Shown piece after piece: positions 29,701 to 38,700 of a stretch of 64,000 bases of DNA. The stretch comes from an uncultured Verrucomicrobiae bacterium (GTDB lineage: Bacteria; Verrucomicrobiota; Verrucomicrobiia; Opitutales; JABDGR01), in contig CAVXVB010000008.1 of NCBI GenBank assembly GCA_963765205.1, positions 160,001-224,000 of the forward strand, given 5' to 3'. Positions within the stretch are counted from its first letter, which is position 1. The number at the start of each line of letters is the position of its first letter. The position numbers are program-made.

Positions 29701-32700
29701 TGCTGGGCGGGACCTGGGTCTTGACCTTGTTCCAGCCGCGTAAAATCAAATACAACGACCCGGCGTTGCAGCCCATGGGCGAGATTCCCAAGGCCGTCTC
29801 CGCCCTGCTCGACCAAAGCAAGGACCTGGAAAAAAAGTTCACCGACGCGACCCAGGCGCGCGACATCACGCCGGACGACCTGGCCAGCCTGCGCCACGCA
29901 ATCCAGTTGCAATTGGATTACCTGGATCAATCGCAAAACCACAACCTCGCCGAGGGCAATGCGCGCATTGAACGCATGACCATCGCGCTCGAGACCTACG
30001 AGGCCAAACCCTTGCGCGCCCAAAGCCTGGACCTGGAAACCAAGGCCGGCGGCCTCGAAGCGCAAAGCGACCTGACCGGCGCCATCAAACTCCTCGCGCA
30101 AGCCGCCGCCTTGGAAGGGCAAATCGTGAAGGACGACCCCAAAGGAGACTCGTATACGTCCGCCCTCAGCCGTGAAATCCAGCTGCGGCACCATGTGGAT
30201 TACCTGACGGCGTTGCCGATCTATAATGAAAGCGCCGCCAGTGAAGCCGCCGCCAAAACCGCCCTGGCCGCGCAGGATTGGGCCGCCGCGCAAAAGAATT
30301 TCCAGCACGCCTACGACCTCCAGTTGAACCTGAACCGCAATTTCCCCGAGCAAAGCTTCGTCAGCGCCCAGCGTGAAAATGACCTCCACAATGAAGTCAC
30401 CGCCCTGCGCTCGCTGCCCGATTACCAGCGCGTGCAACAATCCCTGGCCGACGCCCGGGCGGCCGACGCCGCGGCCGACCAGAGTGACGACCCGGTCAAA
30501 GTCAATCAAGCCGCCGAGCAGGCCGCCCAGTTTTACCAGGAAGCCTATCGCGAACAGGACGACCTCGACAACCATTTCCCGGACTCCCGTTTTGCCGATT
30601 CCTCGCAACTGGCGAAAATCCAGGCGCTGCTCGAAACGTCCAAGAGCCGCCCGCTCGCCACCGAGATCAAGGCGCAGGCCGCCGCGCTCTTTGCCGACTT
30701 GCGGAACCGCCATCCCGACCAGGTGAGCGCGACCATCTCCGTGCTCGAGCAAAAAGCCACGCACTTCCACGAAGCTTTTTCGCAGAGCACCTTGCTCAAC
30801 GCCGATTTGCAAAAACGCCTCGACTTCCTCTATTATAAACGCGACGACCTGGCCGCGATCCAGGAACAGGTTTACGGGCAACTGGCCGCCCTGCCCGGCC
30901 AGCAAACCTTGCAACTCGCCAAGCAGGAAGTCACCCAATCCCTCTACGCCCTGGTCGAAGGGGGCAGCCCCAGCCGTAATCCCGGCGCGCAGCGGCCCGT
31001 GGAAATGGTGAATTGGAACGACGCGCAGGAATTCTGCAGCCGCCTCTCTTGGATTCTCGCCCGCCCGGTGCGCCTGCCCACCGAGGCGGAATACCGCGCC
31101 GCCCTCGGCCCGACCGACGCGCTCGACGTAGCCGCCGTCAGTTGGAACTTCGACAATTCCGCCAGCCAGACGCATGACGTGGCGACCAAGGACGCCAACG
31201 CCAACGGCTTTTACGACCTCCTGGGCAACGTGGCCGAGTGGCTCGGCCGCACCCTCGACGAGGACGACGACAAGGCCCCCGTCATCGGCGGCAACGCCCT
31301 CACGCCGGTGGACACCATCCGCCAGGTCCGCGTCACCGAGCTGGCGCGGGACAACCGCAATCCCTACACCGGCTTTCGTTTTGTGGTGGACCTGGACGAT
31401 TCGCTCCCCGTCATGCCCGCCCCACCCGCCCCCGCGAAAGCCGCGCCCGAGCCGGTCATCCCGCCCGACGACGTCAAGCCGGTGCAGAATTAAATTGGGT
31501 TATAAAATGTTAAATCGATTCACCGCGAAGGCGCGGAGAGCGCAAAGGGAAACGTTACGGAATTAACATAATTTATACTAACCTTGTGTTGTTTTGAACT
31601 TGAGGATGCCGGGTTCTTCGTCCCGGGGAGCCGCGACCACCAAAAAAATCAACCGCCAGACGGTGCATGCGGGATGAGCGCGCATGGCAGGGGCAAGGGC
31701 TGGATAACAATCATCTAACGGCGAAAGCCATAGACGGCCACGGTCAATTGGGCAAGGTAATTAGCGAGTGATTTTTCACCGCGAAGACGCCAAGAACGCA
31801 AGGAAGATTTTTGGGCAGAATTAACAAAATCTCTCCCGGCACTTTGTGCCTGGGTGAACAAAATTTATTCTTGGCGCTCTTCGCGCCTTTGCGGTGAATA
31901 TGCGTTATTACCCGCCTAATTCCCATCGCCCGCATCGGGCGGGTAAAAATAATTGACCGCCACACCGAGGAGGTTGTCGCGCGTGACGGTATAGGGGTCT
32001 ATATCATCATTGTTGTCGCCTTTGATGAGCCAGTGGTCGCCGTCGAGGCGCACGAGGCGGTGGGCGACGAGCCGGCCGACGGGGGTTTTGTAAACGACGA
32101 TGTCGTCCTTTTTCAAGTCCTCCCATTTCGTCGGGACGACGACGATGATGGTGCCTTCGCCGATGATGGGCTGCATCGAGGTGCCGACGCCGCGCAGCAG
32201 GAAGCTGCCGGGCAGGCCGGACTGGCTGGCCATGGTGCCGGCGGCCAGCTCGGCGGTCGTCACCTGGCTGGGGGCGGGGATGGCGGACTCGTAGCCGTCG
32301 TAGCCCTGGTAGCCCCGGGTGATGCCTTGGCAGGCGACCAAGCACCACGCCGTTAGCAGGAAAATTCCGGCCGGGGCAATCCGCCGCCAACAAAGCTTGC
32401 ACGACTCGGGCATGGTCGCGTATTTTAGCCCCGCTTGGGCAAATGCGCAACCAGAAGCCGCTTGCCATTTGCGCCAAATGATTTTTTACTGGGGTAATCC
32501 CCCCGGGCCGCCGTGCCCGCCACCACCCAACCTTTCATTCCCATGAGCCGCCTTCGCCCCCTTTTGCCCTTGGTCGTGCTCGCCGGCGCCGTGCTTGCGG
32601 CGGCCTTCAAGACCGTTGATTATCTCGAAGCCGATGCGGTCATGGCGAAAGTCCATGAGACTCATGGCGCGGACGCGGAGGTGGACGTGATCCAAATGGT

Positions 32701-35700: not shown

Positions 35701-38700
35701 GGCGGCGGAATTCAAGCCCATCGTGCTCTCCGGGCTTTCGATGGCCGGCGGCTTTCTCGCGCTGTCGGTGTCCAGTTTTGTGCCGATGCAGGAGTTTGGG
35801 TTGCTCAGCGCGCTGGTGATGATTCTCGCCTGCTTCGGCGATTTGATTGTCACCGCCGCCATGCTCGGCAACAGCCGCATCATCACCGTCTGGGGCGTGC
35901 TCGACATCAAGCTGCGCCGCGCGATTGTCAAGCAGTCGCCGGTGTTCGAAGGCTTCACGAACTGGCAGGCGCGCAAACTCATCGCCGCGTCGGACATCGA
36001 GGAATTTGCCGGCGGCCACCAACTCATCCATGACGGGGAGGATGGCGACACGATGTATGTCGTGCTCGAAGGCGAACTCGAAGTCACCAAAGGCGCGGGC
36101 GCCGACCGCTTTGAAATCAACCGCGTCGGCCCCGGCCAGGTCATCGGCGAAGTCGCCCTCATGGCCCAGGTGCAGCGCACCGCCGACGTGACCGCGCTGA
36201 CCCCGATCAAAGTGCTCACGCTCAATCTAAAATCCTTGAGCGAGTTGCAGCGCTTCAGCCCCTACCTGGCCGCCAAGCTCAACCTCAACCTCGCGAAGAT
36301 CCTCGGCCTGCGCCTGGCCGACACCCTGAAAAAAGCCCGGACGAAAAACCCCTTCTCTGGTTCCGCCTCCGCGGTGACGGGCTACACCTCGACCCCCTGG
36401 GCTGGCGGCGTTAAGCCGCCGGGAGCGGGGAAATAATTTTGACCGCCAAGGCGCGAAGAGCACAAAGCAAGACTGTCCGATAGCTTTCCCTCTTGGCGCT
36501 CTTCGCGCCTTGGCGGTGAACTGTTTGGTTGCGATAGCTCCCCACCCTAATCCGGCTCTTTTGCCGTGAGCGCATGGTGGACGGCCTGGCCCAAGGCTTG
36601 GAGGGACTGCGGCTTGAGCAGCAAATCGCGGAGGCCCATGGCGTGGACCCGCTCGACCGTCAGGTAAGGGCTGTAGCCGGTGGTGAGGATGATCGGCAAA
36701 TCGAGCCGGATTTTGAGCAACTGCGCGGCGAAATCGGTACCCGTCATGCCGGGCATGGTTTGGTCGGTGATGACGAGGTCAAAACGCGCGGGTGCCTGGC
36801 GCACGAGCTCGAGCGCCTCCGCCACTTTTGTGCTGATCGTGACCTCATAGCCGAGTTGTTCGAGGGTCTTTTGCCCAAGATTGGCCAGCGCTGGCTCGTC
36901 GTCCACATACAGGATGCGCTGGCCTGCGCCCAGCGGCGTGGTTCTCGTCGAGGCGGGCGGCAAGGCCACCTGCTCATGGTAGGCCGGGAAATAAAGGTGG
37001 AAAATCGTGCCCTTGCCCGGATGGCTGTAAACGGTGACCACGCCGTCATGGCTTTCCATGATGCCATGCACCACCGCCAGGCCCAGGCCGGTGCCTTCAC
37101 CCGAAGGCTTGGTGGTGAAAAACGGCTCGAAGATGCGCTCAAGGGTCGCCGCATCCATGCCGCAACCCGTGTCGCCGACGGACAGCCGCACATAGGGGCC
37201 GGGCCGCAGCCGCGGATGCAATTCGGCCAAAAGTTTGTCCACTTCGAAATTCTCCAGTTTGACCTCGAGGCGGCCCGGCCGGTCGCGCATGGCGTGCCAG
37301 GCATTCGTCCCCAGGTTCATCATGATTTGGTGAATCTGCGTTGAGTCGGCGAGGATCGGCGCCACGCCCGGCTCCTTGGTCACCACAAATTCAATGGTGG
37401 TGGGGATGGAGGAACGGAGCAGTTTCAGCGCTTCATCCATGACTTCGCCAATGTGCGTGGAGCGGCGCTCCTGTTGTTCCTGTTGGCGGCTGAAAGTGAG
37501 GATCTGCCGCACGAGGGCGGTGGCGCGATGGCCGGCCTGCATGACGGACTCCATGTAACCCTGCACGAGGGGATTATCACCCAGTTTCATTTTGGCCAGC
37601 TCGGTGTAGCCGGTCATGGCCGCGAGGATGTTGTTGAAGTCATGCGCGATGCCGCCCGCCAGCGTGCCGATGGCCTCCATCTTTTGCGCCCGGCGATATT
37701 GCTCCTCCAGCTTGTGCTGCAAGCTGATGTCTTCCGCGGTGCCGACGATGCGGTAAACCTGGCCCGCCTCGTTGCGAATGGGAAAGGCCCGATCATGGAT
37801 CCAGCGCACCTCGCCGTCGGGGCGCAGGATGCGGTAAACGACGTTGTATTCGCCGCGTTCCTGCCGGTCGGCAATGTCTTTGAGCACCCGGGCGCGATCG
37901 TCGGGATGAATAGCCTCGGACCATTTGGTATTCGAATCATAAAGGCTTTGGCAACTGCGGCCCCAAATGTCCTCAAACGCCGGGCTGATATACAGGATTT
38001 CGCCTTTGGCCGGATTGGTGATCCAGAAGACTTCATTAATGTTCTCGGCCAACTGCCGGAAGCGCTCTTCGCTGTCGCGTAGGGTAACCTCCGCCTCCTT
38101 GCGCTCCGTGATGTCGCGCACAATGGCGATAATGTAGTCCCGGTCGAGCTGGACCCACTTGCTGTTGACTTCAATCGGAAATATGGTGCCATCTTTTCGG
38201 ATATGTTCTGATTCCAGGACGCGGAATCCCCGTTCTCGGATCAGCCGCGCCACCGGCGCCCACGTTGCCGCCGTCACCGTCGGGGAAATGTCGAATACCT
38301 TCAAGGCCAGCATTTCCTGCCGGGTGTAGCCCAGGTCCTGGCAGACTTTTTCGTTTACATCCAAAATCCGGCCCGACTCGGGATCCAGCACCACAAACGC
38401 ATCATTCGAGCGATCCACCAGGGTGCGGAATAATCTCAACGCCGCAACGGCTTGCCGGCTCTCGCGCCGCAGCCGGCTTTGCTCGAGTGCGTGGCTGACG
38501 GCCGGCCCGAGGCGCGCCAGGCGGTCTTTGAGCAGATAGTCCGTCGCGCCGCGCTTCATCGCCGCGACTGCCGTTTCTTCGCCGATGGTGCCGGACACAA
38601 TGATAAAAGGTATGTCCAGCCCGCTCTGCGTCAATAATTCCAGCGCGCGCAGGCCATTGAACTGCGGCATCTCAAAATCCGACAGAATCAAGTCCAGCTC

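Follow-up and report, generated by a model that had tools for sequence, protein, structure and literature searches.

A LolA-like carrier gene paired with a gene for an RND transporter with a cyclic-nucleotide-binding domain in a Verrucomicrobiae bacterium: a candidate switchable lipid exporter

Why should a membrane pump of the lipid-transporting kind end in a domain of the cyclic-nucleotide-binding family, and why should it be encoded next to a putative periplasmic carrier? Both questions are raised by two genes at 32513-36436 of the window (the whole 64,000-nucleotide stretch of the uncultured Verrucomicrobiae genome that we analysed): a LolA_like gene, followed by a gene that fuses an RND transporter to a cyclic-nucleotide-binding (CNB) domain, here called RND-CNB. 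The reading we favour, with a probability of roughly 60%, is a two-gene operon that would encode a LolA-like carrier and a proton-driven, lipid-type RND exporter switched by the binding of cAMP or cGMP to its tail. If this reading is right, it suggests that a second messenger directly switches lipid transport in the cell envelope.

The fusion gene (33509-36436, + strand) is an open reading frame of 975 codons that starts with GTG, and its homologues begin with M at the same residue in our alignment. The architecture given in the preliminary description was reproduced by our own Pfam search, with each domain in the same place: MMPL (PF03176; 1.6e-24, 86.9 bits against a cut-off of 20.5) in two stretches, the better at 558-777, Sterol-sensing at 271-395 (8.7e-12), the Patched SSD at 268-390 (1.2e-09), and cNMP_binding near the C-terminus. 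Pfam, NCBIfam, AF2, Foldseek and conservation together delimit an RND core of residues 1-787 (33509..35869, + strand). The top NCBIfam match is TIGR00921 HAE3 (7e-53), whose 179.8 bits fall under the curated cut-off of 351.9, so we call the protein HAE3-like and not a curated HAE3 member; the HpnN models lie far under their cut-offs (TIGR03480, 75 bits against 751.85; NF052374, 51.1 against 1100). In the AF2 model (pLDDT 80.4, pTM 0.74), the core has 12 predicted membrane helices and two periplasmic domains, arranged as two similar halves: TM1 (16-34), a periplasmic domain (about 35-227) and five helices (228-395), then TM7 (441-459), a second periplasmic domain (about 460-621) and five more helices (622-786). 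Foldseek places MmpL5, MmpL4, MmpL3, NPC1L1 and HpnN at the top of its matches to this model, with MmpL, HpnN and NPC1 at probability 1.00 and Patched also among the matches; the top ten MmpL chains have target TM-scores of 0.74-0.80 (E 8.5e-25 to 1.0e-23) at only 12-15% identity. GxxxD-type motifs occur in TM4 (G309-x3-D313-H314) and TM10 (G700-x3-D704-x-T706), where acidic and polar residues at mid-helix make up what we take to be the RND proton relay. Among 92 sequences, D704 never varies, and conservation reaches at least 90% for both H314 and T706; because these positions are kept, the protein is likely to be a working pump and not a relic. By score, by its two homologous halves, by its 12-helix fold and by its TM4 and TM10 residues, the 975-aa protein belongs to the MMPL type of the RND superfamily.

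Behind TM12, a juxtamembrane linker (residues 788-805; 35870..35923, + strand; delimited from the alignment and AF2 secondary structure) leads into the CNB domain (residues about 806-945; 35924..36343, + strand), which is defined by PF00027 (831-913, 1.3e-15, 57.5 bits against a cut-off of 27.5), by PDB sequence matches and by conservation. This domain is placed in the cytoplasm, since 12 helices precede it in the AF2 model and the topology of RND proteins is established. It consists of a beta-roll (829-906), helices at 907-916 and a long C-helix (918-945), and is followed by a C-terminal stretch with the TAA stop (946-975; 36344..36436, + strand) that is poorly conserved in the alignment and modelled at pLDDT below 50. 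The phosphate-binding cassette is intact: G880-E881...R890-T891-A892 (nt 36146-36184, + strand) has the Gly-Glu and Arg-Thr/Ser-Ala pattern that all 19 of the diverse fused homologues aligned keep without change, and in which Glu and Arg presumably hold the ribose and the cyclic phosphate, as in PKA and CRP. Whether cAMP or cGMP would be the ligand cannot be read from an Arg-Thr/Ser-Ala cassette. Against PDB sequences, the tail matches the CNB domains of PKA RI-alpha and PKG at 1e-18 to 1e-21, those of SthK and MloK1 (4d7s, 4muv) being also among the matches, and the GEVAL...RTA of the query aligns with GE.AL...R[AST]A in the PKA, PKG and PCR12 domains. Since the cassette is kept and the nearest solved relatives are the cAMP- and cGMP-binding domains of PKA and PKG, we predict that the sensor works. 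Coupling of the tail to the pump is proposed because of the conservation at their junction and in the C-helix: in the linker, T793 is invariant and W795 at least 90% conserved (19 fused homologues aligned), and the family-specific C-helix residues N927 and R935 are found in 133 and 128, respectively, of 137 fused proteins.

An alternative that we consider unlikely is that the tail has the CNB fold yet is blind to cAMP and cGMP, binding some other small molecule or serving purely as a dimerisation or scaffold domain. Some CNB folds of the CRP/FNR family do bind other ligands, the long C-helix with N927 and R935 might form an interface instead of a lid, and a few relatives have an altered cassette (Asp for Glu together with Arg-Lys-Thr in L016, L021 and L024; Gln in L008; a degenerate cassette in L042). 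Against this stand the retention of both the cassette Glu and Arg in 130 of the 137 fused proteins, from more than 12 phyla, the true cAMP and cGMP binders that are the best solved matches, and the signalling genes found near the module and in its host. A class III cyclase gene lies directly upstream of the module in one relative (L029), a Metallophos phosphoesterase gene and a CNB-only frame lie upstream in three others (L003, L004 and L017), and the source genome itself has the two CHASE2 cyclases that had been reported for it, which we recovered as CHASE2-class III proteins of 734 and 842 aa. The same genome gives six matches to cNMP_binding: RND-CNB, an MscS-CNB (545 aa), a SulP-STAS-CNB (745 aa), a CNB-HisKA-HATPase (385 aa) and two small CNB-only proteins. 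Two of the five other CNB proteins are thus transport proteins (MscS and SulP). The earlier count of four membrane proteins with such a tail holds for RND, MscS and SulP and fails for the histidine kinase, whose CNB domain is N-terminal and for which Pfam reports no membrane domain.

The fusion is not an accident of one genome. Using the last 196 residues of RND-CNB as a query against 401 Opitutales genomes, we found matches at E<=1e-10 in 90 of them and at E<=1e-30 in only 42 (47 places), all but one of these strong matches starting at query residue 1-5. Most of the 47 lie in frames of 886-1044 aa, the range that had been given before, and the shorter ones are at contig ends or have internal stops. 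The fusion is therefore kept in a minority of the order, as the preliminary description had it, but is not peculiar to the order: it occurs in more than 12 phyla, including the cultured Thalassospira, Pacificispira and Solimonas, and makes up a single old clade within the HAE3-like RNDs.

The upstream gene (32513-33433, + strand) encodes 306 aa when read from GTG 32513. Its true start is likely ATG 32543, giving a shorter form that opens with a signal-peptide-like stretch: read by eye from M11, a basic stretch is followed by a hydrophobic run to Ala-Ala-Ala without cysteine. As there is no lipobox cysteine near the putative signal peptide, the product is probably a soluble periplasmic protein and not a lipoprotein. 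That a LolA-like carrier gene precedes the transporter gene is borne out by PF17131 (residues 95-278, 4.1e-41, 141.1 bits against a cut-off of 30) and by PDB sequence matches to 3bk5 (3.9e-20), 9tp6 and 4z48. A spacer of 75 nt (33434..33508, + strand) separates the two genes, and a terminator scan listed nothing on either strand between 33021 and 35001, so none in the spacer. Downstream, in the gap where the RND and histidine-kinase genes converge, the repeat search found an inverted repeat (36439..36520), its 29-nt arms being 90% complementary with 24 nt between them; it is probably a terminator that acts in both directions and marks the end of the two-gene unit. The flanking genes change between loci and offer no hint of cargo.

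The link between carrier and pump, which had rested on adjacency in this genome, now has a wider footing. Of 20 sampled RND-CNB loci of Opitutales, 19 have a LolA_like gene immediately upstream on the same strand, and in other phyla 23 of the 40 fused loci with enough flank have one next to the fusion (in the remaining 17, neither an adjacent LolA_like gene nor a shared substitute was found); in two relatives (P0082 and P0095), LolA_like is fused to the C-terminus of the RND. In the source genome, RND-CNB is the only HAE3-like RND, and its neighbour is the only strong LolA_like gene. A complex prediction for RND residues 15-787 with LolA_like residues 60-285 scored 0.55, the best of three controls scoring 0.00, with at least 89% agreement in contacts between runs and a partner pLDDT of at least 73. 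It was graded as weak support: by benchmark counts that hold only roughly, custom alignments having been used, 116 of 157 solved complexes reach the mark for the score, as do 2 of 215 mismatches, and scores of up to 0.60 comprise 18 of the 157 solved complexes and both of the passing mismatches.

For the switched exporter we envisage the following sequence, in which nucleotide binding, the sign of regulation, the cargo, the outward direction and the physical transfer to the carrier are what we infer. The RND pump, driven by protons, would take a lipid or amphiphile out of the inner membrane by way of the two periplasmic domains and hand it over to the secreted LolA-like protein, whose beta-half-barrel would ferry the hydrophobic molecule across the periplasm. 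cAMP (or cGMP) made by the CHASE2-class III cyclases would bind the CNB tail and rearrange its lid and C-helix; the linker could carry this movement to TM12 and on to the proton relay of TM4 and TM10, so that transport would be turned on or off post-translationally.

Could the cargo be a hopanoid? The pump would then be a cNMP-controlled functional equivalent of HpnN in its lineage, a triterpenoid assignment that we hold to be doubtful. The genome has two genes of the squalene-hopene-cyclase (SHC) family without a bona fide HpnN, RND-CNB being its sole candidate of the HAE3-like kind and having weak NCBIfam matches to HpnN and BstA; a squalene epoxidase gene lies upstream of the module in a Rokubacteria relative (L006). 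SHC is found in 34 of the 42 Opitutales genomes with RND-CNB and in 53 of the 359 without it, and within the family of the source genome, SHC, RND-CNB and HpnN occur in 9, 7 and 0 of 9 genomes. This co-occurrence is, however, confounded by kinship, because two other families break it: in one (f2), all 34 genomes have SHC and none has RND-CNB, and in the other (f21), 5 of 7 genomes have RND-CNB and none has SHC. Furthermore, 13 Opitutales genomes hold both RND-CNB and a true HpnN, and in two (G188 and G057) HpnN adjoins SHC, with RND-CNB elsewhere. No hopanoid genes were found among the neighbours of the RND-CNB module, and in the source genome the SHC genes are unlinked to it, the nearer, on the same contig, being separated from it by about 250 kb. 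The outcome of this comparison is ambiguous.

It is improbable that the route runs inward, with the LolA-like protein collecting a hydrophobic molecule at the outer membrane or from the medium and the RND inserting it into the inner membrane at a rate set by the cNMP. This would resemble sterol movement of the NPC1/Patched type, or retrograde lipid transport, and the NPC1, NPC1L1 and Patched matches belong to a fold family that includes movers of sterols towards or within membranes. A shuttle that does not cross the outer membrane would also fit the searches for an outer-membrane partner: our custom profile of the DUF1302-like protein had no match in the six-frame ORFs of the genome (92% complete) or in 20 Opitutales loci, and PF06980 reached at best 15.6 bits in the genome (below cut-off, on another contig). 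Yet relatives outside Opitutales pair the module with a DUF1302-like outer-membrane gene, much as the Ame efflux system does (17 of 45 fused loci have one), and the characterised bacterial relatives of the HAE2 and HAE3 kind all export, in the available text of the sources, to the periplasm or further out (HpnN and AmeD, PMC6394551; ApeM, as proposed, PMC8253772). Least probable is a Patched- or SCAP-like sensor that reports the lipid state of the envelope while its tail integrates cNMP, since, for all that output domains follow the RND in some relatives (GGDEF behind RND-CNB in P0071 and in a frame right after it in L022; a histidine-kinase ATPase domain fused to the RND in P0097), the 975-aa protein has none after its CNB domain (Pfam, AF2), its proton-relay positions are conserved, and pairing with a carrier makes sense for transport.

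How does the proposed switched exporter compare with known systems? The best structural matches, the mycobacterial HAE2 proteins MmpL3, MmpL4 and MmpL5, export lipids, siderophores and other amphiphiles to the periplasm, some with accessory proteins (MmpS, AcpM); they differ in being actinobacterial, in their partners and in having a different cytoplasmic C-terminal domain or none, and the titles of the matched PDB entries name no cNMP sensor. HpnN (HAE3; PDB 5khn, 5khs, 6wu0) shares the fold class, core size, 12 helices and two periplasmic domains and is the only RND matched by sequence in the PDB (6wu0, 8.1e-06; Foldseek also returned 5khn_B), but has no CNB tail; it moves membrane lipid towards the outer membrane and, in the available text of PMC6394551, is described as functioning without a dedicated periplasmic partner. 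AmeABCD of Castellaniella defragrans combines an HAE3 RND with a LolA-superfamily DUF1329 protein, a DUF1302 outer-membrane protein and a COG4447 protein. The likeness lies in the pairing of an HAE3-type RND gene with one for a periplasmic protein of the LolA superfamily, and in the DUF1302-like gene of relatives elsewhere; here, however, the carrier is PF17131 and not DUF1329 (PF07044 had no match in the genome), no DUF1302 lies above cut-off and there is no fourth gene, while AmeD (787 aa) is given no CNB domain in that same text (PMC6394551). A four-part system of the Ame type was rejected for the module on the PF06980, PF07044 and DUF1302-like profile results above. ApeL, ApeM and ApeN, with adjacent genes for a LolA-like chaperone and an RND, are proposed to supply the outer membrane with a specialised lipid; they differ in lying inside an aryl-polyene biosynthetic cluster, they include a LolB-like acceptor (ApeN), and the available text mentions no CNB domain (PMC8253772). 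The regulatory logic, a membrane transport protein that ends in a cytoplasmic CNB domain, is shared by MloK1, SthK, the MFS-CNBD proteins and this genome's MscS-CNB and SulP-CNB, none of which is an RND. CNBD fusions to MFS transporters are noted in a review whose available text lists, as post-translational regulators of RND pumps, only the small proteins AcrZ, YajC and WatS1 (PMC10710835). No description of an RND-CNB fusion was found in the literature searched; the protein is a variant, so far unstudied, of a known transporter type, and its design is widespread.

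We identified an RND transporter of the MmpL/HpnN/Patched type that ends in a cyclic-nucleotide-binding (CNB) domain (the RND-CNB protein, 975 aa), encoded at 33509-36436 of the window (forward strand), 75 nt after the ORF of a LolA-like protein (32513-33433, forward strand, 306 aa). The feature itself is real as first described, both ORFs and their Pfam domains having been recovered. An S24-peptidase gene (31916-32413, reverse strand) lies upstream and is divergent from the pair, with the genes of an FGE-sulfatase-domain protein and of PtsI further upstream; downstream, convergent with the RND gene, a cluster at 36547-41394 (reverse strand) encodes a hybrid PAS histidine kinase with receiver domains (765 aa), a single-domain response regulator (150 aa), and a PAS histidine kinase (697 aa). 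A PAS kinase similar to the downstream one also follows the module in a genome of the same genus (G042; L094:9444-12200). A scan of the 75-nt spacer for terminator-like sites gave none, and a repeat search placed a 29-nt inverted repeat at 36439-36520, in the interval that separates the stop codon of the RND gene from the gene of the convergent kinase; from these two observations we infer that the pair forms a two-gene unit that is probably co-transcribed.

Pfam recognized MMPL (in two stretches), Sterol-sensing, Patched SSD, and cNMP_binding (residues 831-913) domains in the 975-aa protein. Its top NCBIfam model is HAE3 (TIGR00921, 7e-53), yet this match is under the curated cut-off, and the models for HpnN and BstA fall far short of theirs; these scores place the protein outside the curated membership of both HAE3 and HpnN. 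An AlphaFold2 model (92 homologues in the alignment; mean pLDDT 80.4, pTM 0.74) has its helices in the order typical of RND proteins: TM1 is followed by a periplasmic domain and five helices, then come a disordered basic loop, TM7, another periplasmic domain, and five more helices, after which a short linker leads to a beta-roll with a long C-terminal helix. Foldseek searches against the PDB ranked MmpL5, MmpL4, and MmpL3 first (target TM-scores of 0.74-0.80 in the top ten matches), followed by NPC1L1, HpnN, Patched, and Dispatched. Conserved candidate proton-relay residues are found in TM4 (D313-H314) and in TM10 (D704-x-T706, with D704 invariant across 92 sequences), at the mid-membrane positions that we take to be the proton relay in pumps of the RND kind. 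From the 12 helices of the model and the established RND topology, it follows that the CNB tail sits in the cytoplasm.

Among solved structures, the nearest to the tail by sequence include CNB domains from PKG and from the regulatory subunits of PKA (1e-18 to 1e-21); the tail also matches a 2736-aa Toxoplasma gondii chain (PCR12, several stretches aligned, 7.5e-27), and further PDB matches are to CRP-type proteins of bacteria and to the channels SthK and MloK1. The cyclic-phosphate cassette (G880-E881 ... R890-T891-A892) is intact and is invariant in all 19 of 19 diverse fused homologues examined, and 130 of 137 fused proteins retain both its Glu and its Arg. The seven exceptions are two truncated copies (L014 and L022), one with Gln (L008), a gammaproteobacterial trio with Asp and Arg-Lys-Thr in the cassette (L016, L021, and L024), and a degenerate copy from Bacteriovoracaceae (L042). 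The predicted ligand is cAMP or cGMP, two nucleotides that the evidence does not separate. In addition, the juxtamembrane linker is conserved at T793 and W795, and in the C-helix N927 is kept in 133 and R935 in 128 of the 137 fused proteins, which is the pattern expected if the CNB domain is mechanically coupled to the pump.

The gene upstream encodes a LolA_like protein (PF17131, 4.1e-41), kin to the solved half-barrel 3bk5, with an N-terminus that, read by eye, looks like a signal peptide without a lipobox cysteine. The preliminary description had linked carrier and pump from their adjacency in a single genome, a weakness that it rightly pointed out itself, and this link is now borne out by further evidence. 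First, a LolA_like gene lies directly upstream on the same strand in 19 of 20 loci from other genomes of the order (the only exception is L112). Second, the genomes of 185,579 species were scanned, and 45 of the best 80 loci code for a fused RND-CNB protein. Upstream flank of at least about 900 bp is available at 40 of these fused loci; a LolA_like gene is adjacent at 23 of the 40, upstream in 22 cases (with gaps of -1 to 181 bp) and downstream in the remaining one. Third, two relatives that have no CNB fusion (P0082 and P0095) carry a LolA_like domain joined to the C-terminus of the RND protein. The source genome encodes no HAE3-like RND protein and no strong LolA_like gene other than this pair. 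Complex prediction for the pump core and the carrier gave 0.55, vs. 0.00 for the best of three controls, which the tool grades as "weak support". Of 157 solved complexes, 116 attained the mark for this score, as did 2 of 215 mismatches; only 18 of the 157, together with both of these mismatches, attained it with a score of 0.60 or less. The counts are a rough guide here since our own alignments were used. The contacts agree by at least 89% between runs, with a partner pLDDT of at least 73. As the prior from gene order and fusions is already strong, we take the prediction as modest extra support, and consider the partnership of the LolA-like carrier and the RND-CNB protein to be solid. For the 17 fused loci without a LolA_like gene, a Pfam search of 61 neighboring ORFs revealed no family in common, and the neighbors of about 250-285 aa at four loci (L021, L024, L036, and L070) have no Pfam match at E<=0.01.

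In many relatives a gene of about 450-530 aa adjoins the module. In unfused relatives this third gene is placed next to the genes of the LolA_like and RND proteins or between the two, and it matches DUF1302, the outer-membrane family to which AmeA belongs. In the fused clade, where Pfam gives no match for it, it is homologous across loci and is distant kin to the DUF1302 proteins of the unfused relatives. A profile built from twelve such proteins found it in 17 of 45 fused loci (for example, at L009:8781-10160 and L019:8801-10186). The same profile found nothing in the six-frame ORFs of the source genome (92% complete) or in 20 loci of the order, which argues that the Opitutales module is a stripped, two-gene form. 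Other searches of the source genome gave only a sub-threshold match to PF06980 (15.6 bits, elsewhere in the genome) and nothing for DUF1329.

Within the order, the tail is matched at E<=1e-30 in 42 of 401 genomes, concentrated in a few families (at E<=1e-10, in 7/9 genomes of family f1, 15/16 of f11, and 7/9 of f17), and four genomes have two copies. The preliminary description of the fusion as a minority trait holds inside the order; the architecture itself reaches far beyond the order and spans many phyla. PF00027 is present in 72 of the 120 homologues listed from the protein collection, and fused loci were found in Verrucomicrobiota, Thermodesulfobacteriota, Alpha- and Gammaproteobacteria, Omnitrophota, Rokubacteria/Methylomirabilota, Acidobacteriota, Planctomycetota, Binatota, Myxococcota, Bdellovibrionota, and Muiribacteriota, with Pacificispira spongiicola, Thalassospira profundimaris, and Solimonas as cultured carriers. 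The ESM Atlas returned 11 matches (scores of about 0.98-0.99), and the five listed are clusters of 54-148 members, at least 95% of which have both MMPL and cNMP_binding domains. In family f23, tail matches occur in 28 of 33 genomes (for example, G159:C9:5249-5656 and G328:C11:49807-50214); those listed (genera g68 and g81) score about 1e-11 to 1e-13, lie mostly in frames of about 1070-1105 aa, and belong to another large CNB-bearing protein, distinct from RND-CNB.

In a tree of the RND core (125 rows, CNB columns left out, quick IQ-TREE, unrooted), all 57 fused rows fall within one set of 65 rows (SH-aLRT 99), the remaining eight of which are unfused, and the protein from the window is placed in a verrucomicrobial subclade. 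The fewest changes of fusion state on this tree number 6, vs. a mean of 41.5 in shuffles. This distribution is consistent with a single old fusion and a few later losses; that gain preceded loss is more than an unrooted quick tree can prove. The architecture is already visible in databases, under generic names only ("cyclic nucleotide-binding domain-containing protein" or "hypothetical"), and full-text literature searches found no published description of it. The RND-CNB fusion is ancient, widespread, and unstudied.

Domain searches of the source genome confirmed the two CHASE2-class III cyclases and the CNB domains on MscS and SulP that had been claimed for it; it encodes six CNB proteins, three of which are membrane transport proteins (MscS, SulP-STAS, and RND). 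In some relatives, signaling genes adjoin the module: in Solimonas, the LolA_like and RND-CNB genes come immediately after the same-strand gene of a class III cyclase-AAA_16 protein (1080 aa, L029:1692-4931), and at loci from three unrelated taxa (L003:3960-5137, L004:2117-3231, and L017:1646-3039) they follow, again on the same strand, genes for a small CNB-only protein and a Metallophos phosphoesterase. We would guess that this phosphoesterase is a cNMP phosphodiesterase. A Metallophos gene also lies near the module at one locus of the order (L107). In protein P0071 (1054 aa) a GGDEF domain follows the CNB domain, and at L022:6943-9179 a GGDEF domain is found right behind RND-CNB as a separate or frameshifted ORF; an RND-CNB-GGDEF protein would couple the synthesis of c-di-GMP to cNMP or to the lipid pump. 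Another protein, P0097 (1553 aa, on 18 contigs), has an HAE3-like RND part joined to a histidine-kinase ATPase domain (HATPase_c, 1437-1538).

The genes flanking the module vary from locus to locus; the module therefore travels alone, and its context says little about cargo. No other shared neighbor was found in the order among the 50 ORFs scanned out of 93 neighboring ORFs listed, PqiA and MlaD families are absent from the module neighbors scanned, and the MlaD matches of the source genome lie away from the module, the nearest just outside the window. Single cases of a gene just downstream of RND-CNB on the same strand are, in the order, an LptA/LptD_N-like gene (L096:4093-4782) and a Stf0 sulfotransferase gene (L111:5004-6503); a gene with a squalene-epoxidase domain lies upstream of the module in one Rokubacteria genome (L006:799-2673). 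Hopanoids could be the cargo of RND-CNB, since the source genome has two genes of the squalene-hopene cyclase (SHC) family (G000:C8:446734-447867, a Pfam match in two pieces inside one 733-aa frame, and G000:C9:1416616-1417509) and no true HpnN, and SHC occurs in 34 of the 42 RND-CNB genomes of the order vs. 53 of the 359 others. However, this association tracks families (in f2, SHC is in 34/34 genomes and the fusion in 0/34; in f21, the fusion is in 5/7 and SHC in 0/7), and true HpnN is also present in 13 fusion-bearing genomes and adjoins SHC in two genomes (G188 and G057). The outcome of this co-occurrence test is ambiguous, and because the association is family-bound and HpnN coexists with the fusion, we regard hopanoids as only a minor possibility.

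RND transporters have a central part in building the envelope and in drug tolerance, and it has long been asked how lipids get to the outer membrane, and when. Our joint reading, to which we give a little under an even chance (about 0.45), is that RND-CNB proteins are phylum-spanning RND lipid transporters switched directly by cNMP: cAMP or cGMP would bind the fused tail and so control proton-driven extraction of an envelope lipid, which the pump would hand to its dedicated LolA-like carrier, and the lipid composition of the outer membrane would be set post-translationally through cNMP signaling. The module of this soil lineage would have lost its DUF1302-type outer-membrane partner, and RND-CNB would form one branch of a cNMP network whose main targets are membrane transport proteins (MscS, SulP, and RND). 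Direct regulation of the pump by cNMP is plausible, and a fused cAMP/cGMP sensor on a lipid-type RND protein, a design retained very long and across many phyla and paired with a periplasmic carrier of its own, would tie second-messenger signaling directly to intermembrane lipid traffic. The idea is directly testable, since Thalassospira profundimaris, Pacificispira spongiicola, and Solimonas, with the same architecture, are non-pathogenic and in culture.

If the reading is true, direct gating by a nucleotide second messenger would be known in RND pumps for the first time. MFS-CNB fusions may occur in M. tuberculosis (the names Rv3728 and Rv3239c were not located in PMC2447327). In the available part of a 2023 review on post-translational control of bacterial transporters, CNBD fusions are mentioned for MFS transporters only, and the post-translational regulators given for RND pumps are only small membrane proteins (PMC10710835). 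In its mode of action, RND-CNB would resemble the HpnN and MmpL-type lipid exporters, and in its regulation the CNB-tailed channels and transporters. The pairing of a LolA-like shuttle with an RND protein is similar to that proposed, in the available parts of the respective reports, for ApeL/ApeM (PMC8253772) and for AmeABCD (PMC6394551), but the Opitutales module is without the outer-membrane parts of the Ame system.
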